Below, in pieces: positions 43,016-57,172 of a stretch of DNA of 64,000 bases. Positions within the stretch are counted from its first letter, which is position 1. Each line of letters opens with the position of its first letter. A program made the position numbers and the translations under genes. Source of the DNA: a virus; the IMG/VR virus record IMGVR_UViG_3300021170_000008, positions 42,135 through 106,134 of that record; one strand, 5' to 3'. The notes under the pieces were generated by a model, which saw only the letters and a program-made list of their open reading frames with translations, was not told the origin of the DNA and searched no databases.

Positions 43016-43789
43016 CTGCCCAACACATTTACAATCCACTGCGGCGATTGCCTGGACGTGATGCGAACGCTGCCATCAAAAAGTATTGATATTGTTTTTA
43101 CGAGTCCTCCATACAACCTGCAAACCCACATAACAAAAGGTAAGAACTACTGGTTAACTGTTGGCAAGATGAAAAAATCTAGGCTAGGCAAGGGGTATGC
43201 CGCCAGCAAAGATGACATGCCGTATGACGAGTATGTGCGCTGGCAGAAATCTGTACTGCTTGAATGCTGGAGATTATTAACCGATACCGGGGCTATATTC
43301 TACAATCACAAGCCGCGTATCCAGGATGGGCTTCTGTACACTCCGTTAGACCTTAATCCTGGATTGCCTGTACGGCAGATCCTGATCTGGAAACGCGCCG
43401 GTGGCATAAACTGCTCACCTACGTTCTTCATGTCAACACATGAGTGGATTGTGATATTCGCCAAGCCAGCGTTCCAGATACGCGACCGCTCGGCGTCTGG
43501 GATCGGGGATGTCTGGGAGATCCACCAGGGCAATCAGTCAAACCAGCCAAAGCACCCGGCTCCATTCCCTATGGAATTGCCGCTGCGGGCACTGACGGCG
43601 TTACGCAAGGAAGAGCGGGTAATCTTGGACCCGTTCATGGGCTCCGGAACTACCGGCGCAGCCTGCATGAAGACCAAGCGCGACTTCATCGGTATAGACA
43701 TCTCAAAAGAATACTGCGATATGGCCAGAAATAGAATATCCTTGGCGCAGCGTGGAGATTTCTATTCCTGGATGGAGTACGGAAACTAA
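43016..43789 (+). CDS. Beta-class N4-C/N6-A DNA methyltransferase (probable CTG start)
   Basis: IHCGDCL upstream of GTG 43058, TSPPY, HPAPFP, LDPFMGSGTT. Confidence 0.9.
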   Translation: MPNTFTIHCGDCLDVMRTLPSKSIDIVFTSPPYNLQTHITKGKNYWLTVGKMKKSRLGKGYAASKDDMPYDEYVRWQKSVLLECWRLLTDTGAIFYNHKPRIQDGLLYTPLDLNPGLPVRQILIWKRAGGINCSPTFFMSTHEWIVIFAKPAFQIRDRSASGIGDVWEIHQGNQSNQPKHPAPFPMELPLRALTALRKEERVILDPFMGSGTTGAACMKTKRDFIGIDISKEYCDMARNRISLAQRGDFYSWMEYGN

Positions 43790-46098
43790 AGCTCCCAATA
43801 CTCTGGCGTCTTGCCCATAGAGCGACCTGATTCCGATCCAAATACTTCGTCGTAGATCTTCTCTGGGTCCATCCCTGGATCAGTTATCATACGGTTGCGC
43901 TCCATGGAAATCTTGATCGACTTACATTTTTCGCATCTCACAAACCCGTGGTCGTGATCCTGCGGCGGGGTATTTGAGAACCAAGTATTGTTACACGACT
44001 TGCAGGTATATTTAAGCTCTGCGCTTTCGTCGTTATTGTCCTTGAATATAGGGATGTATCCACGAGAGTCGTCGTAGTGGCCTTCGTAGGCGCACCACAG
44101 GGCCATCATAGTTGCGAAAAGCTCGTCGTCGTGCGTATCCGAGTCGGCTCCGGCTACGCGGTCGTCGTAGTCGTCCTTGACGAAGTTTTTCATTTCTTCG
44201 GCGGTGATCGAAGACCGCACGAAGAACATCTTGTATTCCAGAAATCTACGGAAGTTCTGATGGAGCCGTGGGCGTGATTGTTGGTTCGTGAACCAGCCGA
44301 TTTTATTGGACATCACATTAATAGAATCCATGTGTTTCCAACGATAAAGATTCGGGTATTGACAGATAGTCCGTAACCATGTAGCGGCGGTGTCGTAGCG
44401 GTTTACTTCGACCGATACCTCACACTCGTTATAGAGCCTTCCGAGCACGTTGATCTGTTCTGCAAAATCCTGTGGGCTGGTTCGGTTAGATCTCCAGACG
44501 GCTACCTGATGTGTCGGACCAATTTGACTAGATACGCTCATCTTGATAACAGAAGCCACGCTGTAGTCGCAATTTCCGCCCAGGCCCTCCGATACGTCGG
44601 CACCGATATAGTACCGGTCTTCCTGGGTTGGATATTCCCATATCCGCAGAGGACAGAAATCGTACAGGTGATTCTCTTTGCAGTCTTCTATAATGCAACG
44701 CGCCGAAGCTGGGTCGATCTGGCCGCTCTCCGTGACTCTCGTGTACTTTGGGTCTACAGCATGGATTCTACCGGCTCGATCCAGAAATCCAGTCAGTAGG
44801 GGGTGCCGGACGTTGACGTTGGCGAAGTCCTGGGCGGTCTTACCGAAAACCTGATACCCCGATACCTGGAACGCGTCTTCGGCAGTCCCTGCTTGTTCTT
44901 GAGCAAGTAGTTTTTGGGATTTTTCATCGCCCCTGGTATTAGCTATAAGATACTGCATCCAGGCAAGTTGGTCGTCTACTAGTTTTAACGGATACGTCGA
45001 TCCAACTTTGCAAATCCTGCACTTCTCTTCTGATTGGTCCAGGTTTTTGATCCAGCGATTGAAGAACCTAAAGCAGTTATCGCAACGCACCCAATCATGC
45101 TCTGCGCGGGAACGCATATCAAACAATTCTTTGTCGAATATCTGCCCCGGTGTCGGCTTTCTAAAGTGCCTGCGGTCCACAAACCACGGCAGGAATAGCG
45201 GGCTCCAGTCCGATTCATCCCCTAGCGCCTCGCAGCGCTTCCAGAACTCGTGAGAGAAAGTATTGGCACCCTTAGCGGTGGATTCAAGGAAGGCGAAGAC
45301 TTCCGTTCCGCCTTCAAGAGCATACTTCAAATCTTCTTCGATGATCTGGCGGGCTCTCCAGGGGTCGTAAGAGGACCACTCGCTAAGATGGGCCGCAGAG
45401 ATACGATATCCCTGCCCGACGCCACTGATAGCGTTAGCGCTCTTCACCATCACCCGGCTCATATTGCCTGGGTCTACGCGCCGCATGGTGTCGTCAGGAT
45501 TGTCAAATATCAGACCGGCTTCGAACGTACGGCTGGAGTAGCGCGGTTTGATCCACCATGGCAACTTGTCATAGATGTTCGCCATGATGCCGAACAGGTC
45601 CTTGGTGTGATCCCGGTCGTAGGAAACGACCACGGCGTTGACGCCAGTATGGAAGATGCTCTTCCAGGCTATCAGGGCTTCGATTAAAGTCGAGCAGCCC
45701 AATCTGCGTGACTTGATTATGACTATCTTCTGGGGCTTACCTTGAGCCTTCAAGTCTAACATTCTTTGATAGATAAGCTCTTGAGAGTCCCACAATCCAA
45801 AGAGTGCTTCCTGACCCCGGTCGTCGATGATCCAGAAGTAGTTTCTGGCGGCGTAGACGAAGTCCTTGCGGCACTTATTGATCTCGCCTTCGACGGCCCT
45901 AAGTTCGTCTTTGGTGAGAGCGTCCCAGTTGTCGCGCTCTTTCTGGTCCATGTGCTTGATCAAGTCAAGCACAGCAGAATCCTGCACCCAACGGGATTTA
46001 GGTGGTTCAGCCTGGAATTGTCTATATTGTGGAATCTCTGGAGGTGGAATCTCAACAACAGACTGATTTGGTACTATAACCATCGAAGTATTGGCCAA
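43786..46098 (-). CDS. terL: Terminase large subunit
   Basis: IIKSRRLGCST, AHLSE, LESTAKG, IGADVSEG..DYS, HDDELFA. Confidence 0.9.
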   Translation of the reverse strand: MANTSMVIVPNQSVVEIPPPEIPQYRQFQAEPPKSRWVQDSAVLDLIKHMDQKERDNWDALTKDELRAVEGEINKCRKDFVYAARNYFWIIDDRGQEALFGLWDSQELIYQRMLDLKAQGKPQKIVIIKSRRLGCSTLIEALIAWKSIFHTGVNAVVVSYDRDHTKDLFGIMANIYDKLPWWIKPRYSSRTFEAGLIFDNPDDTMRRVDPGNMSRVMVKSANAISGVGQGYRISAAHLSEWSSYDPWRARQIIEEDLKYALEGGTEVFAFLESTAKGANTFSHEFWKRCEALGDESDWSPLFLPWFVDRRHFRKPTPGQIFDKELFDMRSRAEHDWVRCDNCFRFFNRWIKNLDQSEEKCRICKVGSTYPLKLVDDQLAWMQYLIANTRGDEKSQKLLAQEQAGTAEDAFQVSGYQVFGKTAQDFANVNVRHPLLTGFLDRAGRIHAVDPKYTRVTESGQIDPASARCIIEDCKENHLYDFCPLRIWEYPTQEDRYYIGADVSEGLGGNCDYSVASVIKMSVSSQIGPTHQVAVWRSNRTSPQDFAEQINVLGRLYNECEVSVEVNRYDTAATWLRTICQYPNLYRWKHMDSINVMSNKIGWFTNQQSRPRLHQNFRRFLEYKMFFVRSSITAEEMKNFVKDDYDDRVAGADSDTHDDELFATMMALWCAYEGHYDDSRGYIPIFKDNNDESAELKYTCKSCNNTWFSNTPPQDHDHGFVRCEKCKSIKISMERNRMITDPGMDPEKIYDEVFGSESGRSMGKTPEYWEL

Positions 46099-46101
46099 TA
46101 C

Positions 46102-46494
46102 TTACTGCGGAGTAACGTCAACCATGGCGTTACGTGGGGAATCCGTACTTTCAAGCCTCCGCAAAATTCCTTCGAAGCTCTGCGTTGATTGAGATGGGCC
46201 TTCTTCGGAAGGAGCTACCGCTACGTTCTGATTTCGGTTGTAAATCTGAGTAACTACACTGACTCCGTTTTGCGGCTTCAGTACGTTAGCCACCTGCAAG
46301 CCCATCTCCAGGGCCTTCATGTTTCCATCACGGATCTTCTCAATCAGCATTGGATACGCCGCGTTTACGAGATCTGCGATATTCTCGCAATACTTTTTCT
46401 GCTGGAATTTTTCGATGTTGGAGAGGGTTACTTTGGACTTATTGCGGCGTGGCTTAACCGCTGCGTCCTGTTTAGAAATAGCTACTTCGGCCAT
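46102..46494 (-). CDS. Putative terminase small subunit
   Basis: Size and position upstream of TerL. Confidence 0.5.
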   Translation of the reverse strand: MAEVAISKQDAAVKPRRNKSKVTLSNIEKFQQKKYCENIADLVNAAYPMLIEKIRDGNMKALEMGLQVANVLKPQNGVSVVTQIYNRNQNVAVAPSEEGPSQSTQSFEGILRRLESTDSPRNAMVDVTPQ

Positions 46495-46522
46495 TTCTAT
46501 TATTGTCGGACGGTGGGAGTAG

Positions 46523-46595
46523 TGCCGGTGGAGGGACTTGCACCCACACTTGGACGGCTTTTAAGGCCGTTTTCTCTGCGTTGGAATACACCGGC
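46523..46595 (-). tRNA. tRNA-Leu(TAA), short variable loop, no CCA
   Basis: ACGGC-CTTAAAA-GCCGT; T-loop TGCAAGT. Confidence 0.8.
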
Positions 46596-46601
46596 GAGAT
46601 G

Positions 46602-46693
46602 TGGTGGGCGACGAGGGAGTTGAACCCCCAGCGGGTCCGAAGGACCTCCAGTTCTACAGACTGGCGCGGGCTACCGATACCCGCAAGACGCCC
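46602..46693 (-). tRNA. tRNA-Tyr(GTA)
   Basis: CCAGT-CTGTAGA-ACTGG; long V arm; CCA. Confidence 0.85.
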
Positions 46694-46694
46694 A

Positions 46695-46781
46695 TGGCGG
46701 AAGCGGCGTGACTCGAACACGCATGACCTATTCGGTCCCGATATTAGCAGTATCGTGGGATACCATTTACCCGACGCTTCC
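46695..46781 (-). tRNA. tRNA-Ser(GCT)
   Basis: CGATA-CTGCTAA-TATCG; long V arm; G73, CCA. Confidence 0.88.
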
Positions 46782-47249
46782 GTTTGAAATGGCAGGGCTG
46801 GCAAGGGTCGAACTCGCAATCGCTGTTTTGGAAGCAGCTACCGTCACCGTCCGGTCAGCCCTATAAATTCTACGCTTTCTGTTTGCCTCCGCACGGAAAA
46901 CCATACAGATATCACACTTGCATTTCCGCTTGAATGCAAAGGACCAGCCACCATGTGTTGCCTTCTGATTATCCCCATTTTCTCTTGTCTTTTCCAGATG
47001 GCACGGCTTGCATAATAACTGGCACTTCAAAAGCTCAGCCTCAAATAAATCCTTTCTCTTCTGCCACATCCTTCCGATGTCGCCAACCTTAGTGGCCGGA
47101 TCGATATGGTCAAAATCAAGATTCTTGGTAGCCCCACATCGGACGCATTTGCCTCCTAATTTAGCTAGCGCGTACTGCCTGCGGCGCTCCCTCCACTTCG
47201 GTAGATAATCCCGAAGATATTCCTGCATTTTCTTGCGAGTGTAGGCCAT
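46767..47249 (-). CDS. HNH endonuclease reading through tRNA-Trp
   Basis: LGGKCVRCG..LDFDHIDP..KCQLLCKPCH; own leaderless promoter. Confidence 0.88.
   Translation of the reverse strand: MAYTRKKMQEYLRDYLPKWRERRRQYALAKLGGKCVRCGATKNLDFDHIDPATKVGDIGRMWQKRKDLFEAELLKCQLLCKPCHLEKTRENGDNQKATHGGWSFAFKRKCKCDICMVFRAEANRKRRIYRADRTVTVAASKTAIASSTLASPAISNGSVG
46790..46862 (-). tRNA. tRNA-Trp(CCA)
   Basis: Loop TTCCAAA; G73, CCA. Confidence 0.8.
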
Positions 47250-47291
47250 GCGGAAGTTTATCACGCAGGCACTCACCGCGCAAATTAAAAG

Positions 47292-47385
47292 TGGAGGAGG
47301 ACCAGGGTCTCCAACCCTGACACCCGTTTAGGGTCTGCTGGGTTCGGGCCAGTGGCCGTTAGGGCGAATCTCGGCTTAGTCCTCC
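47292..47385 (-). tRNA. Atypical tRNA-Ser(CGA)
   Basis: Loop CCCGAAC (C33), long V arm, T-loop TTGGAGA, CCA. Confidence 0.6.
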
Positions 47386-47386
47386 A

Positions 47387-47464
47387 TGGTACCCGCCCTC
47401 GGATTCGAACCGAGACTGTTCAGTTTCTAAAACTGAGGACTCCTGCCAGTTGGTCTAGGCGGGC
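47387..47464 (-). tRNA. tRNA-Leu(TAG), short variable loop
   Basis: TCAGT-TTTAGAA-ACTGA; CCA. Confidence 0.85.
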
Positions 47465-47483
47465 AAAATGAATGTCAAAGATC

Positions 47484-47557
47484 TGGAGAGCTAGCGCAGA
47501 GTCGAACTGCGTACGTCTCTTTTGCAGAGAGATCCCTGGCCGGTCGGGGTCTAGCTC
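47484..47557 (-). tRNA. tRNA-Cys(GCA)
   Basis: TCTCT-CTGCAAA-AGAGA; U73, CCA. Confidence 0.8.
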
Positions 47558-47575
47558 AAACTGAGTTTTTGGGAT

Positions 47576-47653
47576 TTAATAACTTGAGAGTTGCAGTCGG
47601 GATGACCACAAACAGGAACGCGACAGGAGGGATAAAATGTGTGCGCGGTTCAT
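47576..47653 (-). CDS. Putative leaderless leader peptide MNRAHILSLLSRSCLWSSRLQLSSY
   Basis: ATG 6 nt after the -10; Leu/Ser/Cys/Trp/Tyr-rich; precedes tRNAs for those residues. Confidence 0.55.
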   Translation of the reverse strand: MNRAHILSLLSRSCLWSSRLQLSSY

Positions 47654-47659
47654 GTTTAG

Positions 47660-47688
47660 ATATTACTTCAATACTTGCGGCGCGTCAA
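47660..47688 (-). promoter_or_regulatory. sigma70 promoter TTGACG-N17-TAATAT
   Basis: Upstream of the Cys-Leu-Ser-Trp-Ser-Tyr-Leu tRNA sub-operon. Confidence 0.7.
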
Positions 47689-47935
47689 GCATTTTCTTTC
47701 TCGTATAGTACTCCCTAGCCGAGAAGTCCATCCCTAAGGCACGCTTAATAACTTCCTCTAGGGGGCGTAACCCTTGATAGTGGTCTCGCACCGGGAACAA
47801 TATCTCCTTCCCGTCTACGCACCACATCCACTCGGCCTGCGGCAAATCATTCTTACGGATAACGACACGCGGCTTCATTCTACTAGCCCGGCTCGTGGCC
47901 CGTCCCTTCGCAGCGTGGACAATCATACCTTCCAT
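47663..47935 (-). CDS. Hypothetical protein
   Basis: ORF; true start probably ATG 47878. Confidence 0.45.
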   Translation of the reverse strand: MEGMIVHAAKGRATSRASRMKPRVVIRKNDLPQAEWMWCVDGKEILFPVRDHYQGLRPLEEVIKRALGMDFSAREYYTRKKMLDAPQVLK

Positions 47936-48122
47936 GCACGCACGCTAGGAACCCACTACCGGCGCAGCGCTGGCAGGCGATTGTCTGGATTGTGTTTTCG
48001 ATAGGCGGATCTGGGTACTTCGGGTCGCGATGGATCTTGGGAACGATCACCCGCGTCGTCTTGACCCGGCCTACCCGCTCACGGGCTATCCATTTGATTT
48101 CCTTGGGGACGTTGCGCTTCAT
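47883..48122 (-). CDS. Small protein with CxxCxGxG zinc finger
   Basis: CQRCAGSG..CPRCEGTG. Confidence 0.55.
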   Translation of the reverse strand: MKRNVPKEIKWIARERVGRVKTTRVIVPKIHRDPKYPDPPIENTIQTIACQRCAGSGFLACVHGRYDCPRCEGTGHEPG

Positions 48123-48281
48123 TCTGAATCTCTATCGATCACCACGACCGTAACTCCCTCTTCTGACATCAGAATGAAATTACGCGCCTTCGTATCCGGA
48201 TCAAAGAACCGGTCTCGCTCCTGGGGGAATACGTGATGCAGTAGAGTTGCCCAGGCAGCATACGGCAGCCTTACGTGAATT

Positions 48282-48710
48282 TTAGCCACGCTCTTTCTCC
48301 AGCATCGCCTTGATGAACGGCTCAATACCGCCGTCGAGTACCGGTTCCAGCGGCAATTCAACGCCGGTGCGATGGTCAAGCACCGTGCCACGCTTGAAGT
48401 TGTACGTCCTGATCTTTTCGCCCTTCTCGGCGGTCTGGCGCGTTCTTTCTACCGGCACTCCAGCCATTCTTCTGGCGCATTCTATCCGGTGCCAGTCCTG
48501 GAACTCCTTTGATGCTACCAGACGCTTGAATGCAGCTTCCCGGTTCTTGGTATTGCTGCGGTGTTCACGGCCTTCGCCACGGGCTCCGGATGCTTTGTGG
48601 ATCAGACGTACGCCGCTGTTGGACGTGTCTTTACCTCCGCCTCCAGCCCCTCCTACCGAGAAGGTCTGAATCTAGAAGTCTTTCTTGGTGACACTAAAAA
48701 GCAGTTCCAT
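48282..48710 (-). pseudogene. RF-1-domain (PrfH/ArfB-like) gene with in-frame TAG at codon 13 and GGQ replaced by GGG
   Basis: MELLFSVTKKDF*IQTFSVGGAGGGGKDTSNSGVRLIH..RSNTKNREAAFKRL..IRTYNF..VLDHR. Confidence 0.75.
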
Positions 48711-48919
48711 TACGCCCTCGCCGCCATTCTCTCCGCTCTCCTGGCTGCTGCCGCAGACGACCGGATCTGCCCTACGTGAAACCCGTTACAGAACGGACAC
48801 CGATACGCCCTGAACTTGGCCTTCTTGAGCTTATGTAAGCTCTTAGCCCGTATCTGGGCGTCCTCCAGGGTGTGGTGGATCTTCTTCCTGCCGCATTGTC
48901 TTTGCTGAAGGTCTGTCAT
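48710..48919 (-). CDS. Small zinc-finger phage protein
   Basis: CGRKK..AYRCPFCNGFHVG. Confidence 0.7.
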   Translation of the reverse strand: MTDLQQRQCGRKKIHHTLEDAQIRAKSLHKLKKAKFRAYRCPFCNGFHVGQIRSSAAAARRAERMAARA

Positions 48920-48924
48920 AAATT

Positions 48925-49000
48925 TGGCTGGGAGTCTTGGGATCGAACCAAGGACCTTCTCTTTCAGAGAGAGACGCTCTGCCGACTGAGCTAACCCCCA
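48925..49000 (-). tRNA. tRNA-Gln(CTG)
   Basis: TCTCT-CTCTGAA-AGAGA; U1-A72, G73, CCA. Confidence 0.85.
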
Positions 49001-49227
49001 GTAAGACTATCTTTTTCTGTATCGAACGGCTCCATCGGTTCCGTGATCGACGTGTCTTCGCACTCTTCGTAGTTGCCTACCCGGCGCAGGTACTCCTTGC
49101 CTCCGTCCACGGAGATATTTCCGCACTTACAGGACCGGAAGTCATGTACCGACTTCGACTCGATCTCTTCCCCGCACTTCAAGCACTTGACGCTGTTGCG
49201 GATGATTTTCTCTCGCGGTATTTTCAT
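48991..49227 (-). CDS. Small zinc-binding phage protein
   Basis: KCLKCGEEIES..HDFRSCKCG..VDGG.EYLRR. Confidence 0.75.
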   Translation of the reverse strand: MKIPREKIIRNSVKCLKCGEEIESKSVHDFRSCKCGNISVDGGKEYLRRVGNYEECEDTSITEPMEPFDTEKDSLTGG

Positions 49228-49616
49228 TTGTATTTACCTACCGCCAGCCGCAATTTAGCGTTTTCCGTACGTAGGGCCAGCAGTTCGTGCCAAGTAAACT
49301 CAGCGTTCATCTTATCAGAGATGAAAGATCCTTCCAGATACGCAATCCACGCCTTGTCCGATAGCTGCTTGTTTAACTTGCGAAGTCTTTTGGATTCCTT
49401 CAGCCAGTCTGATGCCCTCTTAAAAACTCTGTCTATATAACGCTGATCAACACTCTCCTGACGGGTATGGCAAATCCCCTGAGCCGCGTGCTTCCCTTTG
49501 AATTTACAGTCAGCCTGAACACAGAAGCTCTCCCAGATCTCGCGCTGGAACACGCGGGTCTCGGTCTTGTGCTTCCCGCCGTGCTTGATGATCTTGACTG
49601 GTTTTTCTTGTTTCAT
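49224..49616 (-). CDS. Hypothetical protein
   Basis: 130-aa ORF, coupled. Confidence 0.55.
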   Translation of the reverse strand: MKQEKPVKIIKHGGKHKTETRVFQREIWESFCVQADCKFKGKHAAQGICHTRQESVDQRYIDRVFKRASDWLKESKRLRKLNKQLSDKAWIAYLEGSFISDKMNAEFTWHELLALRTENAKLRLAVGKYK

Positions 49617-49621
49617 AAATT

Positions 49622-49650
49622 TGGTAGCGCCGGAGCGACTCGAACGCTCA
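49622..49650 (-). pseudogene. Orphan tRNA 3' fragment (T-arm, acceptor strand, CCA)
   Basis: GAGCGTTCGAGTCGCTC-CGGCGCT-ACCA with no 5' half. Confidence 0.65.
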
Positions 49651-49656
49651 TAAAAT

Positions 49657-49733
49657 TGGTGGCTGGAATCGGTTTCGAACCGCCTTTCAGCGTTTTCAGC
49701 GCTGCTCTGTCACCAGACCAGATCCATCCAGCC
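49657..49733 (-). tRNA. tRNA-Phe(GAA)
   Basis: CAGCG-CTGAAAA-CGCTG; CCA; imperfect T stem. Confidence 0.75.
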
Positions 49734-50256
49734 CTTGCTTAACCAAACGAGAATATATAGCATCGACCGCCGTCAGCATATCCGCGTTAGTTATCACGTT
49801 ACCGTGCTCTATCCTATGACAGTTAGCGCACAACAATCGACACTTCTTTATCTCAGCCGCAATAGCACTCCACGATCTACTTGCCGAAGTCCCAACAGTA
49901 AAATCCTTGCCTCCGACATGATGGAAATCAAGAGCCGCTAGCGGGACCACGGAACTACACCTAGTACAGCTTCCTCCCATTATCTTAACGGCTGCCATTT
50001 TTGTAGCAGTGCGCCTGATCTTGGATATACATGCTCCGCAACGCCTTGACCTCCCACGACAGTCTTTCCCGCAGAAGCGGCATGACCCACTAATTTCTCT
50101 GCTCTTTCTGTCCTTCTTAGGGATGTGGATTCTTTTAGTATTATGAGATAGATACGGAGAGCAATCCAAGCAATACTTACGATCCCTGAACCATTTTCTC
50201 TTTCCATCAATCACCATAGTTGACGGGAAGATAGATTGACACTTACGGCACACCAT
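49696..50256 (-). CDS. HNH endonuclease ending in the tRNA-Phe anticodon loop
   Basis: MGGSCTRC..ALDFHH..KCRLLCANCHRIEH. Confidence 0.88.
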   Translation of the reverse strand: MVCRKCQSIFPSTMVIDGKRKWFRDRKYCLDCSPYLSHNTKRIHIPKKDRKSREISGSCRFCGKDCRGRSRRCGACISKIRRTATKMAAVKIMGGSCTRCSSVVPLAALDFHHVGGKDFTVGTSASRSWSAIAAEIKKCRLLCANCHRIEHGNVITNADMLTAVDAIYSRLVKQGLDGSGLVTEQR

Positions 50257-50272
50257 GCACTATTGTATCACA

Positions 50273-50719
50273 TCATGCCTTGACCCCGTTGGCTACAGCG
50301 CTATTGTCAGTAACAATTCTTTCGAAGATCTTCAGCCCATCCGTCTGAGCATTGAACTTCATGTTCTTGCTGCCTGGGCTCGTTCCTGACCAGATCAAAA
50401 TTAACCCGCCGTCGCCTTTCGCCCACTCCGACATCTGCATATTCCGAATGATTCCGGCTTGTTTCCCGAACTTTTTCCAGTCGGCCTTCATGACCTCAGG
50501 CTTCACTTTAAGTTCGTACCGAAGCCACGCTTCAGCTACCTCGTCTACGCCTTTGGCCCCGCCGACGCAGAACTTGCTGTTCACCCAGCCATCAAGCTCG
50601 TCCAGGCCCTGTCTGATGTACTCGTAGATCAACTGGCGCTCGCCGATCACGTCGGACATGCGCTTGCCTTCTTTCTCGGCCCCGATCCAGCGCGACCCGG
50701 CGATAACTATACGCCGCAT
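50273..50719 (-). CDS. SLOG-family (DUF2493/YspA-like) protein
   Basis: IVIAGSR, GGAKGVD, ADWKKFGKQAGIIRN.QM, SPGSKNM. Confidence 0.8.
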   Translation of the reverse strand: MRRIVIAGSRWIGAEKEGKRMSDVIGERQLIYEYIRQGLDELDGWVNSKFCVGGAKGVDEVAEAWLRYELKVKPEVMKADWKKFGKQAGIIRNMQMSEWAKGDGGLILIWSGTSPGSKNMKFNAQTDGLKIFERIVTDNSAVANGVKA

Positions 50720-51270
50720 AGCCTGCGCCAAAGCAAAACAGCAAGACCGGTCAGTACAAGAGCCGCAGACCCAGGCTCCGGAACATCCGTAACATAGTAC
50801 GGAAATAATCTGATCCAACCTCCGCCGTCGCATTCCGAACAAGACCCGGAAACAGATCCAGCTATCGTAAACTGCTCTCCAGAATAGAACTCATACTCGG
50901 GCATACCGTGCGGTCCAATGCCGACATTGGGTAGACTGACACTGAATCCAGACCGTCCCCATATTGCCGTGGCATCTTGCGCTGCGTATAGCTCAATCAT
51001 CCCAGGCAATCCAGAAGTCGTCACGATGTCCATCTCAATTGAGAACGACGCTGACCCCGAAGCCTCCGTACATTGATCGAAAGCATTACACCAAGACGAC
51101 AGTAAGACTGTAGCTACCGGCAGGTTCGAAAACGGATCAACTTCAGCGTAAGCGCTGGCGGTAGCGCCTGATCCTGACGCCTGCTGAGACGTGTTAAACA
51201 CAGCAGGGCCAAGTGAAACCGTATCGGCCAACAGCGGCAACGAAAGCGCCAGTAGCAGCATGGCCTTCAT
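50707..51270 (-). CDS. PEP-CTERM surface protein
   Basis: Signal peptide; VPEPGSAALVLTGLAVLLWRR. Confidence 0.88.
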   Translation of the reverse strand: MKAMLLLALSLPLLADTVSLGPAVFNTSQQASGSGATASAYAEVDPFSNLPVATVLLSSWCNAFDQCTEASGSASFSIEMDIVTTSGLPGMIELYAAQDATAIWGRSGFSVSLPNVGIGPHGMPEYEFYSGEQFTIAGSVSGSCSECDGGGWIRLFPYYVTDVPEPGSAALVLTGLAVLLWRRLCGV

Positions 51271-51276
51271 ATCTTT

Positions 51277-51305
51277 ATTATCGCTCTACGCAAAGTATCT
51301 GTCAA
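51277..51305 (-). promoter_or_regulatory. Promoter TTGACA-N17-GATAAT (leaderless PEP-CTERM gene)
   Basis: ATG 6 nt after the -10. Confidence 0.65.
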
Positions 51306-51380
51306 GACTAATCAGGCCGTCCGCCGGGCTTCCCGCTAGGTTAGGGCTGGGTAAGCAACAACGTGACGGCCTGAACTTGT

Positions 51381-51456
51381 TGGCGTCCCTGCGGAGAATT
51401 GAACTCCGATTGTCGGCTTGAGAAACCGATTTCCTTGCCGTTTAGAAGACAGGGAC
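51381..51456 (-). tRNA. tRNA-Glu(CTC)
   Basis: Loop TTCTCAA; CCA. Confidence 0.85.
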
Positions 51457-51457
51457 G

Positions 51458-51532
51458 TGGCGGGCGCGAGCAGAATCGAACTGCCGTCGAGGCATAGACA
51501 GTGCCCCATCTTGGCCACTAGAAGACGCGCCC
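51458..51532 (-). tRNA. tRNA-Asp(GTC)
   Basis: Loop CTGTCTA; CCA. Confidence 0.85.
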
Positions 51533-51538
51533 TAAACT

Positions 51539-51613
51539 TGGTGCTCGGCTCCGGACTTGAACCGGAATTGTCAGATTCGTAATCTGAAGACCTATCCATT
51601 GATCGAACCGAGC
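51539..51613 (-). tRNA. tRNA-Arg(ACG)
   Basis: Loop TTACGAA; CCA. Confidence 0.85.
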
Positions 51614-51614
51614 A

Positions 51615-51688
51615 TGGTACCGCCAGCGAGAATCGGACTCGCGTTGCAGGAGTGAAAATCCTGATTCCTACCACTAGAAGATGGCGGC
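51615..51688 (-). tRNA. tRNA-Glu(TTC)
   Basis: Loop TTTTCAC; CCA. Confidence 0.82.
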
Positions 51689-51698
51689 ATAAATCTAA

Positions 51699-51772
51699 TG
51701 AGCCCGGAGAGAATCGAACTCTCGATGTACGGATTAAAAATCCGTTGCTCGGCCAACGTGAGCGACGGGCTC
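51699..51772 (-). tRNA. tRNA-Lys(TTT), no CCA
   Basis: Loop TTTTTAA. Confidence 0.85.
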
Positions 51773-51779
51773 GCAAAAC

Positions 51780-51857
51780 TGGTGGACCGCCTCGGACTCG
51801 AACCGAGAATCGCCGGAGTAAGAATCCGGAGCTTTAATCCAATTTAGCTAACGGTCC
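51780..51857 (-). tRNA. tRNA-Lys(CTT)
   Basis: Loop TTCTTAC; CCA. Confidence 0.85.
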
Positions 51858-51863
51858 AAACTT

Positions 51864-51942
51864 TGGTGCCTCTTCTTGGATTCGAACCAAGGGCCTACCG
51901 ATTATGAGCCGGTTGCTCTGGGCCAGACTGAGCTAAAGAGGC
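51864..51942 (-). tRNA. tRNA-Met or Ile2 (CAT)
   Basis: Loop CTCATAA; CCA. Confidence 0.85.
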
Positions 51943-51946
51943 AAAA

Positions 51947-52021
51947 TGGTTGGGAGTGACAGACTCGAACTGTCGTAGTAAGATTCAAAATCTTACGTCC
52001 TAGCCGCTGAACGAACTCCCA
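51947..52021 (-). tRNA. tRNA-Gln(TTG)
   Basis: Loop TTTTGAA; U1-A72; CCA. Confidence 0.85.
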
Positions 52022-52028
52022 TCAAAAT

Positions 52029-52105
52029 TGGTGCGCCTGGGAGGAATCGAACCCCCGTAGTCTCCGGTAGAAACGGAGCGCATAAATCCGCTCTGCCACA
52101 GGCGC
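52029..52105 (-). tRNA. tRNA-Arg(TCT)
   Basis: Loop TTTCTAC; CCA. Confidence 0.85.
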
Positions 52106-52109
52106 TTAA

Positions 52110-52203
52110 TGGCCACCGACTGGGCGACTCACACCCTCGACTCTCGCCGGGGTAACTTGCGGCATACGATCCGCATGGCGACGATCCCAGCATCTAGTGG
52201 CCA
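52110..52203 (-). ncRNA. Unassigned structured RNA in the tRNA array
   Basis: Nested helices TGGCCAC/GTGGCCA, CTGGG/CCCAG, TCGCC/GGCGA, TGCGG/CCGCA; fills one tRNA slot. Confidence 0.55.
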
Positions 52204-52206
52204 ACT

Positions 52207-52280
52207 TGGTCCCTTCGGAACGAGTCGCACGTTCGTCGGTCGGTTATCAGCCGACTGCATTGCTCTTATGCTACGAAGGG
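52207..52280 (-). tRNA. tRNA-Ile(GAT)
   Basis: Loop CTGATAA; T-loop TGCGACT; CCA. Confidence 0.82.
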
Positions 52281-52285
52281 GAAAT

Positions 52286-52361
52286 TGGTACCGGTATCCA
52301 GACTCGAACTGGAATTCCTGCCTTCGGAGGACAGTGCCCTGATCCCTTGGACGATACCGGC
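52286..52361 (-). tRNA. tRNA-Arg(CCG)
   Basis: Loop CTCCGAA; CCA. Confidence 0.85.
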
Positions 52362-52367
52362 GAAACT

Positions 52368-52441
52368 TTTAGGCGTCGAGATTTGAACTCGAATTTGCCC
52401 CTTAGGAGGGGGCCGTCGTATCCGGGTTGGACCACGCCCAA
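52368..52441 (-). tRNA. tRNA-Arg(CCT), no CCA
   Basis: GCCCC-CTCCTAA-GGGGC. Confidence 0.7.
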
Positions 52442-52443
52442 CT

Positions 52444-52519
52444 TGGTACCGGGGTAGAGGATCGAACTCTACTGCAACTGTGTGTAGGACAGTGGCCCTC
52501 TCCAGAAGGCGACCCCGGC
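52444..52519 (-). tRNA. tRNA-Val(TAC)
   Basis: Loop CCTACAC (C33); CCA. Confidence 0.8.
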
Positions 52520-52526
52520 ATTGAAA

Positions 52527-52616
52527 TGGCTCACGGGGCAGGATTCGAACCTGCGGCGGGGACTGAGTCCCTCCTGATTAACAGTCAGGCTCCTGCTACC
52601 ACTCGGATACCCGTGA
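52527..52616 (-). tRNA. tRNA-Asn(GTT) with long variable arm
   Basis: Loop CTGTTAA; V arm GGGAC-TCA-GTCCC; G73, CCA. Confidence 0.8.
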
Positions 52617-52623
52617 ATAAAAT

Positions 52624-52698
52624 TGGTCGGGGTAGGTGTTCTCGACTCACCGGCCTCAGCTTCCCAAAAGCCGCGCTCTGCCTCTGAGCTATACCCCG
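52624..52698 (-). tRNA. tRNA-Pro(TGG), atypical T arm
   Basis: Loop TTTGGGA; C1-G72; CCA. Confidence 0.78.
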
Positions 52699-52702
52699 AA
52701 AT

Positions 52703-52777
52703 TGGTTGCGGAGGGGAGAATCGAACTCCCGATCCCGTGCGCCCGAGGCACGTACCATACCACTTGGCTACTCCGCA
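52703..52777 (-). tRNA. tRNA-Pro(CGG)
   Basis: Loop CTCGGGC; CCA. Confidence 0.82.
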
Positions 52778-52786
52778 AAAACTTGA

Positions 52787-52847
52787 TGCCGGGGTGCCGG
52801 ATTTTCACCGACCGCCCATGGTTGAAACCGCGTGCTCCGACCCCGGC
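52787..52847 (-). ncRNA. D-armless tRNA-like small RNA
   Basis: 8-bp GCCGGGGT/ACCCCGGC stem; T arm GTCGG-TGAAAAT-CCGGC. Confidence 0.55.
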
Positions 52848-52898
52848 GCATTGGACTGCATTCTATTGTCAAACAACTCAGCCCAACCAACTAATGAG

Positions 52899-53009
52899 CT
52901 ATGTGTACTTCTTAACCCAGCGGCACACGCCGCAGATGATGCAGCGTAACTTCTCTACGTTCTCCGTCACCTTGCCGCATCGCTTGCAGAAGATCGCTTC
53001 TTGATCCAT
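52899..53009 (-). CDS. Small zinc-ribbon peptide (36 aa)
   Basis: CKRCGK..CIICG. Confidence 0.5.
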   Translation of the reverse strand: MDQEAIFCKRCGKVTENVEKLRCIICGVCRWVKKYT

Positions 53010-53015
53010 AACTTT

Positions 53016-53091
53016 TGGGAGGCTATGTCAGGATCGAACTGACGTAAACGGTTCCACAGACCGTCCCCTGAACCACTCGGGTAATAGCCCC
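53016..53091 (-). tRNA. tRNA-His(GTG)
   Basis: G-1:C73; loop CTGTGGA; CCA. Confidence 0.88.
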
Positions 53092-53102
53092 GCATTCAAA
53101 CT

Positions 53103-53182
53103 TGGTGGAGCACTGGAGTAACGATCTCCACTGAAATTCCGCATTGCAAGTGCGGCGACCACCCCATGCAGTCCCGTGCCCC
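53103..53182 (-). tRNA. tRNA-Ala(TGC)
   Basis: G3:U70; loop CTTGCAA; T-loop ATCGTTA; CCA. Confidence 0.82.
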
Positions 53183-53187
53183 AAAAC

Positions 53188-53265
53188 TGGAGCGAGTGGA
53201 GCGATTTGAACGCTCGGCCTGTTCGTTGGCAACGAACCGCTCTAGCCAGACTGAGCTACACCCGC
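53188..53265 (-). tRNA. tRNA-Gly(GCC)
   Basis: Loop TTGCCAA; U73, CCA. Confidence 0.88.
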
Positions 53266-53658
53266 CGAATACATTCCCGGTATACGCTTAGGATTTCTCT
53301 CCCGCTGCGCCTTCAATCTCTGCCGTTGATGTTCTCTACACAATTCGCACCGGCAGCCACGCCTATACGATGCGTGCGTTCCGTGTACAGCATCCCTACG
53401 AAATTCCTCCGCCGTCTTTTTCTCATGGCACTTCCTGCACAGGACCTGACACTTCTTTAATTCCTCAGTCCTAGTACTTTCCTTCCATGACCAGATCCTG
53501 TGCGACACTTTCGTCTTTGGGTCGATGTGGTCAACTTCAAGCCTTTCCCATGACCCACACCGCCTGCACGGCCCGTTTGCGGAAAGCCATTCATTCCGAC
53601 GTTTCCGAATCCATTTGAGCCTATATTCTTTTTGCTCCACCGGATCAATGTAAGGCAT
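53242..53658 (-). CDS. HNH endonuclease ending in the tRNA-Gly D arm
   Basis: CRRCG..LEVDHIDP..KCQVLC..CH; HGT..Y..GCRCELC; promoter TTGACT-N17-TAACAT. Confidence 0.88.
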   Translation of the reverse strand: MPYIDPVEQKEYRLKWIRKRRNEWLSANGPCRRCGSWERLEVDHIDPKTKVSHRIWSWKESTRTEELKKCQVLCRKCHEKKTAEEFRRDAVHGTHASYRRGCRCELCREHQRQRLKAQRERNPKRIPGMYSAGVAQSG

Positions 53659-53701
53659 GGAGCGATGTTACAGGACAAACCCGACAGAGTCAATCTCAAA
53701 A

Positions 53702-53775
53702 TGGAGCGGATGGCGAGAATCGGACTCGCGTCTTGAGTTTGGAAGACTCAGGCCCTACCACTGGACGACATCCGC
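53702..53775 (-). tRNA. tRNA-Gly(TCC)
   Basis: Loop CTTCCAA; U73, CCA. Confidence 0.85.
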
Positions 53776-53781
53776 CCTAAC

Positions 53782-53958
53782 TTAGTCTGCTCCGCTTGCG
53801 CCGGTCGCATCCGATACCGACGCCAGCATCATCGCTTCAACAGCGTCAGCAAAATCGTCTTGCTCGTCGGGCGACAACTCGCCGTTCCGGATCATACACT
53901 GATGGCATCCTTCCCGATACCGGTAATGCGCCGCACACGGCAATCTGTTTTGTTCCAT
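53782..53958 (-). CDS. Small hypothetical protein (58 aa)
   Basis: SD GGGAG; CAAH..CHQC. Confidence 0.5.
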   Translation of the reverse strand: MEQNRLPCAAHYRYREGCHQCMIRNGELSPDEQDDFADAVEAMMLASVSDATGASGAD

Positions 53959-53984
53959 AACTAACTCCCTGGTTTTACTATAAC

Positions 53985-54059
53985 TGGAGCCCCGCCGGGA
54001 GCTTGAATCCCGCTAGCTGCCTTACCAAAGCAGTTCATCGCCATCTATGATTGCAGGGC
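53985..54059 (-). tRNA. tRNA-Thr(GGT)
   Basis: Loop TTGGTAA; CCA. Confidence 0.8.
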
Positions 54060-54065
54060 CTAAAC

Positions 54066-54140
54066 TGGAGCACCATCGCGGAGTTGAACCGCGCTGTCTG
54101 GTATACGAAGCCAGGGCATCGCCAGCAATGCTTATGGTGC
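54066..54140 (-). tRNA. tRNA-Thr(CGT)
   Basis: Loop TTCGTAT; CCA. Confidence 0.8.
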
Positions 54141-54156
54141 CTAATTCTGATTGTTC

Positions 54157-54241
54157 CCGGTGTGACGCCGCTTGGGCTTGGGAAGTTATGCCAAGCGGCT
54201 GAATTGGTCCCGGCGCGTTTCAATCGCCATGACTCTACCGG
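54157..54241 (-). ncRNA. Unassigned structured RNA in the tRNA array
   Basis: CCGGT/ACCGG closing stem; hairpins GGCG/CGCC and GCCGCTTGG/CCAAGCGGC. Confidence 0.5.
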
Positions 54242-54247
54242 CTGGAT

Positions 54248-54328
54248 TGGTTGCGGGAATCGGATTTGAACCGATATGATTCCGGCTTATGAGACCGGCG
54301 CTGGGGCCAGATTCCAGTCCATCCCGCT
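54248..54328 (-). tRNA. tRNA-Met(CAT), initiator-like 1:72 mismatch
   Basis: Loop CTCATAA; 3' TCCCGCAACCA; lacks the GGG/CCC anticodon-stem signature. Confidence 0.78.
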
Positions 54329-54337
54329 TCAAATGTT

Positions 54338-54408
54338 TGGGGCTAGCTGACAGAATTGAACTGTCCCTGAAACCATACAAGGGGTTCGGCGCGGCCACGC
54401 GAGCTAGC
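54338..54408 (-). tRNA. Atypical tRNA-Thr(TGT)
   Basis: Short D arm; GAACC-CCTTGTAT-GGTTT; CCA. Confidence 0.6.
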
Positions 54409-54458
54409 ACGCATGTCGAACCGATCATCCCTGATGTGTTCAAAAGCTCCACGGTCTA

Positions 54459-54486
54459 ATCTTACCACTCCCAGGTATCTTGTCAA
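54459..54486 (-). promoter_or_regulatory. Main tRNA-array promoter TTGACA-N16-TAAGAT (extended -10)
   Basis: About 50 nt upstream of the first tRNA. Confidence 0.75.
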
Positions 54487-54592
54487 GCACTATTTTAAGG
54501 GCGGTGTTTCATGTAGGTATAACCAGTACCTTGTCATGCGGCTCTCCCGCAGCACCATGCCGCCCTTCCCCGTGCGTCCACTACGGAGAACT

Positions 54593-55075
54593 TTATACTA
54601 CTGTAATTCCACCCGGACCCGGCTGCTCGGTCGGCAGCGGCGGTAATCCGGATTCGGCCTGCGGCTGGATCTCAATCCCGCTTAGAACCGCATTCCCAAC
54701 CGTTGCCGTAAACTGCATCGATAGATTCCCGTTTGTAACAATCGCCGGTACCGTCAGCGTATACGGGACCATCAGTCCAGCCAGCGCAAACAAATCAATA
54801 ACTTGCGTCAGTAGTCCATTAACCATGATGGTGAATCTTCGCTGACCTGGACCGGTCTTGTTTGGCTCTAAAAATAACAAGTTTACGATATAAAAGCCGT
54901 TCGAAGTCACATACGACGCTGTGAATGCCGGGCCATAGCGCAGCGTCTGATAGACGCCAGATTGATTCCCCATATTTGGATCGTTAGCCGGTCCCCACAA
55001 CGTCCCGCTACAACCGAAGTCTGCGACATAATTCCCTACCGCAGGCCCACCGATGTTCACCAGCAGCGGGTCCAA
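54593..55075 (-). CDS. Malectin-domain protein
   Basis: VYQTLRYG, Y.VNLLFLE, GQRRFTIMVNG, IDLFALAG, NAVLSGIEI. Confidence 0.8.
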   Translation of the reverse strand: MDPLLVNIGGPAVGNYVADFGCSGTLWGPANDPNMGNQSGVYQTLRYGPAFTASYVTSNGFYIVNLLFLEPNKTGPGQRRFTIMVNGLLTQVIDLFALAGLMVPYTLTVPAIVTNGNLSMQFTATVGNAVLSGIEIQPQAESGLPPLPTEQPGPGGITVV

Positions 55076-55609
55076 CTACGATCTCCCGAGAGCACTACCA
55101 ACCCAGCATCCACCAACCGGCACTGTTATTTCCTGTGGTAGCTCTAACGCACGTAGACGCGCCGCTGGTGCCGTCGGCGTCGCCGGAGCTAGTTTGGTAG
55201 CAAGCCAGTGCGCGAGCAGTCCAGCGCCTGCAGAAACCGTCACCGCCATGGTTTTCTCACTAGGAGGCATCTTCACGCTGCCGGTTATAAATGCTCCAGC
55301 TAGGCTAGCTAGCTCGGCGGTATCTGCGCTGATCTCTGCTAGGGATTTCCGTACCGTCAAAAGATCAATCGACCCAGGCGAAAACAGGGACTGATTGTTG
55401 AGTGCGGCAGCCTGGATTACTTCACTTGACGACACGCGAGTCCCTACTGAGGCGCACACTCGGACATCTTTTACAACGACACCAGGGATGCCGCGATCTA
55501 AAAATGTCCGACGCGCCGTGCGTGGTCCGTTAGAGACCGTGACAGTAACCTGAGCCAATGCCGGAATTGTCAATGCCCCGAATAGCGCGAAGATGAAACG
55601 GCAGATCAC
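55076..55609 (-). CDS. Secreted/membrane protein
   Basis: Signal peptide ending ALA-Q. Confidence 0.6.
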   Translation of the reverse strand: MICRFIFALFGALTIPALAQVTVTVSNGPRTARRTFLDRGIPGVVVKDVRVCASVGTRVSSSEVIQAAALNNQSLFSPGSIDLLTVRKSLAEISADTAELASLAGAFITGSVKMPPSEKTMAVTVSAGAGLLAHWLATKLAPATPTAPAARLRALELPQEITVPVGGCWVGSALGRS

Positions 55610-56115: not shown

Positions 56116-56432
56116 AATGTCACCGGATGCGTGCTCGAATACCAGTCTTGATATGCTTGCGGTGTGTTCATCGGCAACTGCTTAAGTAGAATGATGCCGT
56201 ACCACGCCTTAAATGCGTCGATGGTCTGCTGAATAACGGATGCCGCTGCCGAGCTACCTGGGAAAGCAATCCCAAAAGCTACGGCCTCCTGCGTCAGATT
56301 AGCAGCAAACTGATCTGGCGTAGGCGGGAGAATGCGGTCGCTTCCGACCTGAAACCCCTGCGTCCACTGCAAAAGCTGGTCCGCCATCATATCGGCGAAA
56401 CTAGCGTAAAACGTGCTTGGCGTTGTTGCCAT
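56112..56432 (-). CDS. Hypothetical protein
   Basis: Coupled ORF. Confidence 0.6.
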   Translation of the reverse strand: MATTPSTFYASFADMMADQLLQWTQGFQVGSDRILPPTPDQFAANLTQEAVAFGIAFPGSSAAASVIQQTIDAFKAWYGIILLKQLPMNTPQAYQDWYSSTHPVTL

Positions 56433-57170: not shown

Positions 57171-57172
57171 AC

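Follow-up and report, generated by a model that had tools for sequence, protein, structure and literature searches.

A serine- and leucine-rich 25-codon reading frame in the conserved spacer ahead of a phage tRNA block

The last tRNA block in the tRNA island of a soil phage is preceded by a short open reading frame (ORF). Leu, Ser, Cys, Trp and Tyr, the five amino acids carried by the tRNAs of this block, account for 16 of the 24 codons behind the ATG of the ORF. The conserved block that covers most of the ORF is a real feature, as are the ORF and its composition, and the enrichment in these five amino acids is no composition effect. We nevertheless regard the ORF, with moderate confidence, as an incidental frame in a conserved, transcribed spacer. 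A preliminary description of this DNA had interpreted it as a leader peptide that senses tRNA supply and induces the tRNA genes behind it. That interpretation is partly supported overall: the anatomy and the codon statistics could be reproduced, whereas the proposed mechanism is without support, as set out below.

The tRNA island and its last block

The window analyzed here, 64,000 nucleotides in length, is the final part of an IMG/VR phage record of 106,134 bp. Reading is predominantly on the minus strand from ~11.8 kb of the window onward, and a co-oriented tRNA island at 46.5-54.4 kb lies directly upstream of a gene for a 770-aa terminase-like protein (43786-46098). ARAGORN identified 27 tRNAs in the island and Rfam added five more, bringing the total to ~32; small ORFs and three HNH genes are interspersed among them, and all of the island genes and tRNAs are on one strand. 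The array covers all 20 amino acids once Cys and Trp are counted. The tRNAs added by Rfam are:

46793-46862: tRNA-Trp
52627-52698: tRNA-Pro(UGG)
54254-54326: tRNA with a CAU anticodon
47487-47557: tRNA-Cys, visible only if searched alone
tRNA-Tyr gene, counted among the Rfam additions and scored under the tRNA-Sec model

The ~10-kb region that contains the island appears to be peculiar to this phage lineage. In the closest readable relative (L016, 61% terminase identity), homologues of 56436-57293 and 46102-46494 are adjacent with zero tRNAs between them, which makes the ~10-kb block between these genes in the present phage, tRNA island included, an accessory insertion of this lineage. In five relatives whose sequences are complete or nearly so, there are only 0-2 tRNAs. 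The closest terminase, that of P0001, is 63% identical and lies on a 104.7-kb contig. Terminase alignments brought up 51 IMG/VR and 17 JGI loci at no more than 61% identity, none of which has the tRNA island; the terminase alone, used as a query against IMG/VR, gave no match, and blastn of 46400-48200 against the INPHARED phages returned a tRNA-Leu match only.

The last tRNA block and the sequence immediately upstream of it contain the following features, in the order in which they are read:

47663-47878, minus strand: upstream 72-aa gene (90 aa if the start is 47935), in the same frame as the 25-codon ORF, with its TAA 9 nt before the ATG of that ORF
47576-47653, minus strand: 25-codon ORF starting with ATG, stop included, from the ORF listing
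47484-47557, minus strand: tRNA-Cys (anticodon GCA, U73, encoded CCA); Rfam tRNA score 38.3 bits, E = 2e-7, when searched alone
47472-47483, minus strand: motif GATCTTTGACAT between tRNA-Cys and tRNA-Leu, a single occurrence in the window
47387-47464, minus strand: tRNA-Leu (anticodon TAG), found by ARAGORN; Rfam score 46.5 bits
47297-47386, minus strand: tRNA-like element, read earlier as tRNA-Ser (CGA), not validated as a tRNA
46767-47276, minus strand: HNH endonuclease ORF (PF01844, a weak match with E = 0.0013), running through tRNA-Trp into tRNA-Ser
46522-46862, minus strand: tRNA-Trp (CCA), tRNA-Ser (GCT), tRNA-Tyr (GTA) and tRNA-Leu (TAA); Ser, Tyr and Leu from ARAGORN, Trp from Rfam

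The upstream 72-aa gene has a clearly gene-like coding score (+16.5 bits); it is without a Pfam family and is a singleton in the protein collection. The preliminary description had placed the 25-codon ORF at 47653-47576, 18 nt before tRNA-Cys, and our analysis reproduced both the coordinates and the gap, with the stop of the ORF 18 nt ahead of the first base of tRNA-Cys (47557). It had also listed seven downstream tRNAs in the order Cys-Leu-Ser-Trp-Ser-Tyr-Leu. Six of these were confirmed by ARAGORN or Rfam, whereas the first of the two Ser genes, Ser(CGA), proved to be only tRNA-like. The minimum-energy fold of tRNA-Cys is a clean cloverleaf, and this tRNA was not picked up by ARAGORN or by the wider Rfam scans. 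The tRNA-Trp scores 30.6 bits in Rfam against a gathering cut-off of 29 bits for RF00005, and ARAGORN sees Trp under relaxed settings. For the 'Ser(CGA)' element there was no tRNA match by ARAGORN or by Rfam (E <= 10); it can be folded as a cloverleaf with a long extra arm only if constrained, at a cost of 0.6 kcal/mol over the minimum free energy, and has C33 and an odd T-loop.

The only comparative data for this region came from three soil runs mapped on 46400-48400. Run X3, which is from a different study, contains fragments of a closer relative, with tRNA stretches ~95% identical and the HNH gene 86% identical, and its version of a neighboring gene for a 79-aa protein has the residues of P0124 in the diverged segment. 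The 'Ser(CGA)' element is kept in X3 and its 3' part is kept in one contig of run X1; it is a conserved tRNA-like element rather than a validated tRNA. The sequence that precedes this element in the X3 relative appears to be a different one. The same 12 letters as in GATCTTTGACAT are found behind a tRNA-Leu homologue in another X1 contig. This boxA-like motif would agree at ~9 of 12 positions with the E. coli rrn boxA consensus. The RNA run X2 covers just part of the HNH gene within the mapped interval. Four homologues of the 79-aa neighbor protein were found, all on small ENA, NCBI or Logan contigs, and their alignment gave zinc-finger-level matches only against GTDB genomes and IMG/VR.

Codon composition, frames and conservation of the spacer

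Codons 7-25 of the ORF comprise 6 Leu, 7 Ser, 1 Cys, 1 Trp and 1 Tyr (16 of 19) with no Phe and no Pro, a recount that agrees with the figures given previously. The preliminary description had further argued that this enrichment goes beyond pure compositional bias and had suggested shuffling at fixed base composition as a check, and the argument withstood it. Mononucleotide shuffles in which an open frame was required had a mean of 8.7 such codons out of 24 and reached 16 with P = 8e-4, while none of the 69,120 open dinucleotide-preserving shuffles attained 16. When the whole spacer was scored, the frame of the ORF gave 18, compared with 9 and 6 in the other two frames. The ORF is also the most enriched of the 452 ATG ORFs of 20-45 codons in the 106-kb genome, none of the others exceeding 60%. 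Only 4 regions of the genome reach 16/24 when all six frames are considered, and the chance of one of these 4 falling in the 100 nt before the matching tRNA block is ~0.002.

The spacer itself is unusual in its bases. By pyrimidine content it ranks among the top 0.5% of the 60-nt windows of the genome, and by its excess of C over G among the top 1-2% of windows; within the ORF, a pyrimidine occupies 20 of the 24 first codon positions and 11 of them are T. At the level of individual codons, 9 of the 16 enriched codons have a matching anticodon downstream if standard wobble rules are applied, as against 4.3 in shuffles (P = 0.005). Five of the seven Ser codons (TCC three times, TCA twice) are unreadable by Ser(CGA) or Ser(GCU), and two of the six Leu codons (CTC twice) are readable only with an unmodified U34. 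Because most of the Ser codons are unreadable by the phage Ser tRNAs, induction of the block would not relieve most stalls.

Codon usage in the ORF is lower than in every 24-codon window of the real genes of the phage (log-likelihood ratio -12.9), and a '+1 off-frame' model is favored for it by 13.7 bits. The context of its ATG ranks at the 32nd percentile among the gene starts of the phage itself and, among ATGs of any kind, in the top 15%; this is within the normal range for the Shine-Dalgarno-poor genes of this phage. The spacer carries these further features:

47559-47684, minus strand: neighboring frame, one base upstream of the ORF frame, open for 42 codons over the entire spacer
47569-47718, plus strand: 49-codon ORF with an indecisive coding score, absent from the protein collection
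47595-47654, minus strand: conserved block of ~60 nt, corresponding to ~codons 1-20 of the ORF, found on other short soil-metagenome contigs with unrelated flanks
47660-47688, minus strand: promoter-like site TTGACG-17-TAATAT, 6 nt before the ATG, with 9/12 consensus matches
47591-47651, minus strand: two hairpins predicted for the spacer RNA (47651-47616 and 47611-47591), with an unpaired A/U-rich tail behind them up to tRNA-Cys

The neighboring frame has no ATG, GTG or TTG before an internal GTG that leaves a 17-codon tail. It reads as a hydrophobic, membrane-helix-like peptide because codons with T or C in the middle specify Phe, Ile, Val, Leu, Pro, Ala and Thr. Its coding margin of -0.3 is ambiguous, with 7.7% of real windows below this value and 2.3% of off-frames above it. 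In the +1 frame of 22,550 real-gene windows, the count of Leu, Ser, Cys, Trp and Tyr codons reached a maximum of 15/24, and the mean was 8.8 where at least 80% of second positions were pyrimidines. Since the +1 shadow never exceeds 15/24, being the shadow of a hydrophobic gene accounts for only part of the enrichment; as a plain explanation of the ORF it was rejected as insufficient, i.e. the anomaly is reduced by it and not removed.

Production of the peptide by readthrough or frameshifting from the upstream gene was considered as well and was set aside: the sequence upstream in the relatives is unrelated, there is no slippery site after the TGA of the neighboring frame, and the array contains no suppressor tRNA.

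Run X1 is probably the source sample, and two of its low-depth contigs, 165 and 199 nt long, align with no more than 47595-47654 and 47595-47635, at ~83% identity and with unrelated flanks. One X3 contig is identical at 39 of 39 positions in 47597-47635; beyond this it has a variable part that is 3 nt longer, then CATGAACCGCGC as in the phage, and further upstream its sequence is unrelated. All of the reconstructed X1 and X3 variants retain the ATG and the frame of the ORF, across the 3-nt change in length, with non-conservative changes at codons 5-6. In the X1 consensus the ORF frame runs at least 10 codons further, into unconserved sequence where codons for Ser, Tyr, Cys and Leu are again frequent. 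The neighboring frame is likewise open in all variants and in the X1 consensus meets a TAG one codon past the end of the homology; the flank consensus of X1 is that of two contigs with 75-82% agreement. The plus-strand 49-codon ORF is truncated by a TGA in the X3 variant. Conservation of the ORF, which the preliminary description had named as a check, did not refute the idea, ATG and frame being kept in a few X1 and X3 fragments, but the neighboring frame is kept equally well.

In the X1 and X3 fragments the block is conserved to about the same degree as the adjacent tRNAs, whereas the flanking genes are not conserved. The block behaves as a conserved unit, and the fragments would appear to fit the ORF, the neighboring frame or a non-coding RNA element equally well.

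Searches for further relatives of the spacer were negative, and no relative carrying the island turned up in the databases that were covered. A 23-mer of tRNA-Cys gave no match in IMG/VR, and nor did a pattern tolerating synonymous changes in the neighboring frame; a leader pattern with a variable gap and the synonymous-change pattern for the ORF frame were also without a match. Protein queries, for which the ORF was read through its stop, yielded no candidates of 22-70 aa. Searching with tblastn for both frames among phages produced nothing meaningful, the ESM Atlas search gave chance-level scores, and the exact sequences are absent from the protein collection. The spacer is not repeated within the genome or in the fetched loci. 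No ORF rich in cognate codons stands ahead of the other tRNA blocks in the island of this phage, nor ahead of the tRNA blocks of Pseudomonas phage vB_PseuGesM_254, which served as a control.

Two matches to the ORF in the full HMMER scan were low-complexity repeats and were judged to be non-homologous.

Transcription signals and explanations of the ORF

The preliminary description had assigned a promoter, TTGACG-N17-TAATAT, 6 nt from the ATG. The letters and the spacing are present as described, but at 9/12 the match is no better than chance sites: there are 12 sites of this quality in a 10.7-kb region, compared with 6.8 +/- 2.7 in shuffles, and the local match is an ordinary, chance-level one. 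Better promoter-like sites exist upstream in the island, one at 51305-51277 and one, ahead of the first tRNA, at 54486-54459. Given the spacing of the local site, a transcript would start on the first base of the ATG. The -10 hexamer of this site shares bases with the TAA stop of the upstream gene, and because that gene is clearly coding, transcripts can simply enter the spacer from upstream. In X3 the hexamer ends in GCT instead of TAT, and one X1 variant has TATTCT there.

No terminator-like site was found on the minus strand near the ORF, in line with the earlier statement that no intrinsic terminator is evident. The fold of the 104-nt spacer has a z-score of -2.76, which becomes -1.65 without the 9 nt before the ATG. 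The two hairpins fold independently of the tRNA cloverleaves and have no U run behind them, and fold predictions contain no alternative in which the spacer pairs with the tRNAs. The arrangement by which an attenuation leader is recognized, i.e. an intrinsic terminator together with a mutually exclusive antiterminator over the ORF, is not found here, and an Rfam scan of the spacer returned no family match.

In the explanation that we favor, the 104-nt stretch from the upstream gene to tRNA-Cys would be a conserved pyrimidine-rich spacer that heads the last tRNA block of a ~10-kb accessory island. It would most likely be transcribed within long co-oriented island transcripts that start from the stronger promoter-like sites upstream, with the weak local site perhaps providing an additional start. 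The spacer RNA would fold into the two hairpins and the unpaired A/U-rich tail, ordinary pre-tRNA processing would free tRNA-Cys, and we infer that the ORF would go untranslated. Pyrimidines at first codon positions would then give rise to the U-N-N and C-U-N codons of the ORF. Codons that begin with U are those for Phe, Leu, Ser, Tyr, Cys and Trp, and the last tRNA block consists of decoders of U-first codons plus Leu-CUN and Ser-AGY, with Phe two genes upstream. Because the last block happens to decode U-first codons, the composition of the ORF and the tRNA set are joined by one sequence property. This link explains the coincidence in part, and coincidences of one in several hundred are to be expected from time to time. 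A small hydrophobic-peptide gene in the neighboring frame may have left the three-base periodicity behind. On this reading, the case illustrates how a designed match can be mimicked, with pyrimidine-first codons linking a Ser/Leu-rich frame to tRNAs for U-first codons.

Several observations stand against the incidental reading. The enrichment is too strong for all of the null models tried, and the ORF is one of only 4 such regions in the genome and lies right before matching tRNAs (the ~0.002 chance given above). The match between codons and anticodons exceeds that of shuffles, the ATG and frame are kept in the fragments, and the start context is normal. The conservation of the 60-nt block at the tRNA level is also left without an explanation by this reading.

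The explanation proposed originally is that the ORF is a translated, possibly leaderless, leader peptide, and that ribosomes slowed on codons for scarce tRNAs control the tRNA block. A stalled ribosome would shield the C-rich, G-poor RNA from Rho, as at tnaC, so that transcription continues into the tRNA genes, whereas with an ample supply the ribosome would depart at the UAA and Rho would terminate transcription. We consider this unlikely, and equally improbable is the variant in which ribosome speed sets the output of the Cys-Leu-Ser-Trp-Ser-Tyr-Leu block via Rho access or transcript stability. In its favor, the enrichment outlasts every composition control, the codon-level match is above that of shuffles, the RNA would begin at the ATG if the promoter-like site were used, and the C-over-G excess of the spacer is rut-like. 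The start context that is normal for the phage, the ATG and frame kept in both X3 and X1, and the continuation of the X1 consensus frame with Ser, Tyr, Cys and Leu codons all point the same way. Phage tRNAs rescue infection from tRNA-cleaving defenses (PMC11555353, PMC11464382, PMC13096335), and a demand-driven switch would therefore make sense. The proposed sensing mechanism was nevertheless not upheld: there is no structure that could transduce the signal, neither terminator nor antiterminator being present, only 18 nt separate the stop from tRNA-Cys, and just 9 of the 16 codons are readable, with most Ser codons beyond the reach of the phage Ser tRNAs and the Ser(CGA) gene itself unvalidated. 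The promoter is at chance level, with the last three bases of its -10 hexamer not kept in X3, and transcription could read in from upstream. The feature is confined to one block, no second block having such an ORF, and the case was chosen from a very large scan for this same coincidence. In a literature search no leader-peptide control of tRNA genes was found to be described, and the prior for such a sensor is low because it has no precedent. If it were true, it would be the first case of a cognate leader peptide governing tRNA genes instead of biosynthetic enzymes and a new means by which a phage meters replacement tRNAs against tRNA-cleaving defenses, and the feedback loop could let the phage answer the depletion or cleavage of tRNAs by host defenses.

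The ORF could also be the +1 shadow of the 3' end of a relic or extant gene for a small membrane protein in the neighboring frame, the start of which was lost in this phage by recombination at ~47654; the ORF would be incidental on this reading too. We find this doubtful. The 42-codon open frame reads as a hydrophobic helix and has a coding margin above 97.7% of off-frames, and the 13.7 bits by which the ORF fits the +1 model agree with it, as do the position of the homology start (47654), exactly on a codon boundary of the neighboring frame, and the X1 consensus, in which that frame stops one codon past the homology and is open through the upstream flank. Yet the frame has no start codon in the window, searches for protein homologues were without result, the synonymous-tolerant pattern was unmatched in IMG/VR, the coding margin of -0.3 is ambiguous, the X1 flank consensus agrees to only 75% between its two contigs, and a +1 shadow never stands at 16/24 in the real genes of this genome. 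Somewhat less probable again is a functional RNA element of the pre-tRNA, in which the hairpins and a C-rich loop would be a signal for processing, stability or antitermination. The predicted fold of the spacer is better than that of shuffled sequences and does not depend on the tRNAs, the block is kept at about the tRNA level when the flanking genes are not, and the variable part is the top of hairpin 1, with the lower stem and the 3' arm kept. The Rfam scan gave no support to such an element, however, the stems are identical and thus without compensatory changes, the fold z-score drops to -1.65 without the 9 nt before the ATG, and a frame-specific codon pattern is unaccounted for. It is very improbable that the plus-strand 49-codon ORF is the real gene and the minus-strand ORF its antisense shadow: the plus strand has a high purine content, also at first codon positions, and its coding score is not clearly worse than that of the alternatives, but the neighboring genes are all on the minus strand, the score is indecisive, the product is not in the protein collection, and in X3 the ORF is cut short by a TGA.

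Comparison with known systems

The ORF resembles the leaders of amino acid operons that are controlled by attenuation (ilvL of ilvGMEDA, and trpL, hisL, leuL, pheL and thrL) in being a short ORF right before genes that handle the same amino acids. The leader peptide ilvL contains a mixture of Leu, Ile and Val codons, comparable to the 16 of 19 found here. The principle of multi-amino-acid attenuation has been described (PMC1183508). Unlike in these leaders, the downstream genes here encode tRNAs instead of enzymes, a terminator hairpin with a U run and an antiterminator are both absent, the ORF has no Shine-Dalgarno sequence, and many of its codons are not those of the downstream tRNAs.

With tnaC, the spacer shares a C-rich, G-poor RNA around the ORF and the absence of an intrinsic terminator; since no intrinsic terminator is present, Rho is the only conceivable terminator. 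What the tnaC leader senses, via its nascent peptide, is free tryptophan rather than the supply of tRNA, and its stop is followed by a long spacer that contains the rut site. In contrast, only 18 nt lie between the stop and a structured tRNA here, and much of the stretch is predicted to be paired. The one well-known example of direct control by tRNA charging over translation-apparatus genes is that of the T-box riboswitches; they are RNA-only, tRNA-binding elements located ahead of synthetase or amino-acid genes. Rfam scans gave no T-box match in this region.

The island as a whole has closer parallels than the ORF. No terminase-level relative that was fetched carries it, and a literature search found no leader-peptide control described for phage tRNA arrays. 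With its ~32 co-oriented tRNAs, small ORFs and three HNH genes, it resembles the arrays with free-standing homing endonucleases in the segB region of T4 and the tRNA region of T5. As in Pseudomonas phage vB_PseuGesM_254, the tRNA array adjoins the terminase gene. Such phage tRNA arrays have been tied to escape from tRNA-cleaving defenses (PMC11555353, PMC11464382, PMC13096335).

The tRNA island and the neighbouring terminase gene

46500-56430: island of about 32 tRNAs, which also carries three HNH genes and numerous small ORFs

In L016, the closest readable relative, homologues of 56436-57293 and 46102-46494 lie side by side; judged from this gene order, the entire tRNA island is an insertion with respect to that relative. 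The tRNA count in terminase-level relatives is 0-2. Several of the closest homologues (P0002, P0004 and P0005) of the terminase-like product encoded at 43786-46098 (minus strand) are ∼350 aa longer than it and contain domains of the intein and homing-endonuclease type (PF14528 and PF14890), of which the window's own copy has none.

A tRNA, a short motif and a predicted RNA fold in the array

47484-47557, minus strand: tRNA-Cys
47472-47483, minus strand: motif GATCTTTGACAT, between tRNA-Cys and tRNA-Leu
52106-52206, minus strand: stretch of about 100 nt with a predicted stable fold, between tRNA-Ile and tRNA-Arg

The tRNA-Cys was undetected by ARAGORN, with both default and relaxed settings, and in Rfam scans of 10 kb and of 471 nt, and scored 38.3 bits in Rfam when 88 nt were supplied as the sole query; real tRNAs of the array can be hidden by speed filters. 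The motif that follows it, GATCTTTGACAT, occurs once within the window. In another contig from X1, the soil run that is probably the source sample, the identical 12 letters stand immediately after a homologue of the tRNA-Leu and are followed by AAGGAGG and an ATG. Candidate identities for the motif are a boxA-like element and a conserved -35 element.

The stretch between tRNA-Ile and tRNA-Arg is predicted to form a very stable (-45.2 kcal/mol), long, closed multi-stem structure; it is not a tRNA, and the Rfam scan of 10 kb gave no match to it.

Reading frames and translation initiation

48282-48710, minus strand: ORF with an in-frame TAG and, on read-through, a match to the RF-1 domain
46767-47276, minus strand: HNH endonuclease ORF, running across tRNA-Trp and ending within tRNA-Ser

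Once the TAG is read through, the first of these ORFs matches the Pfam RF-1 domain (PF00472, 55.5 bits), and by this match its product appears to be a protein of the release-factor or ArfB type encoded within the tRNA array; none of the tRNAs of the array is a suppressor. The HNH ORF has no stop codon ahead of tRNA-Trp, all of which is read through, and its stop falls within tRNA-Ser. Positions 46874-47082 of this gene are matched without a single difference by a contig from the soil metatranscriptome run X2. Across the whole genome, the Shine-Dalgarno signal is nearly absent at phage gene starts (at most 0.17 bits per position upstream of the ATG), which points to a host in which translation initiation is Shine-Dalgarno-poor.

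Comparison with a Pseudomonas phage array

OR575930.1, 22902-27966: locus of Pseudomonas phage vB_PseuGesM_254

This control phage has a strong promoter-like sequence, TTGACT-17-TATGAT, ahead of its first tRNA and, like the window, carries its tRNA array immediately upstream of the terminase large-subunit gene.
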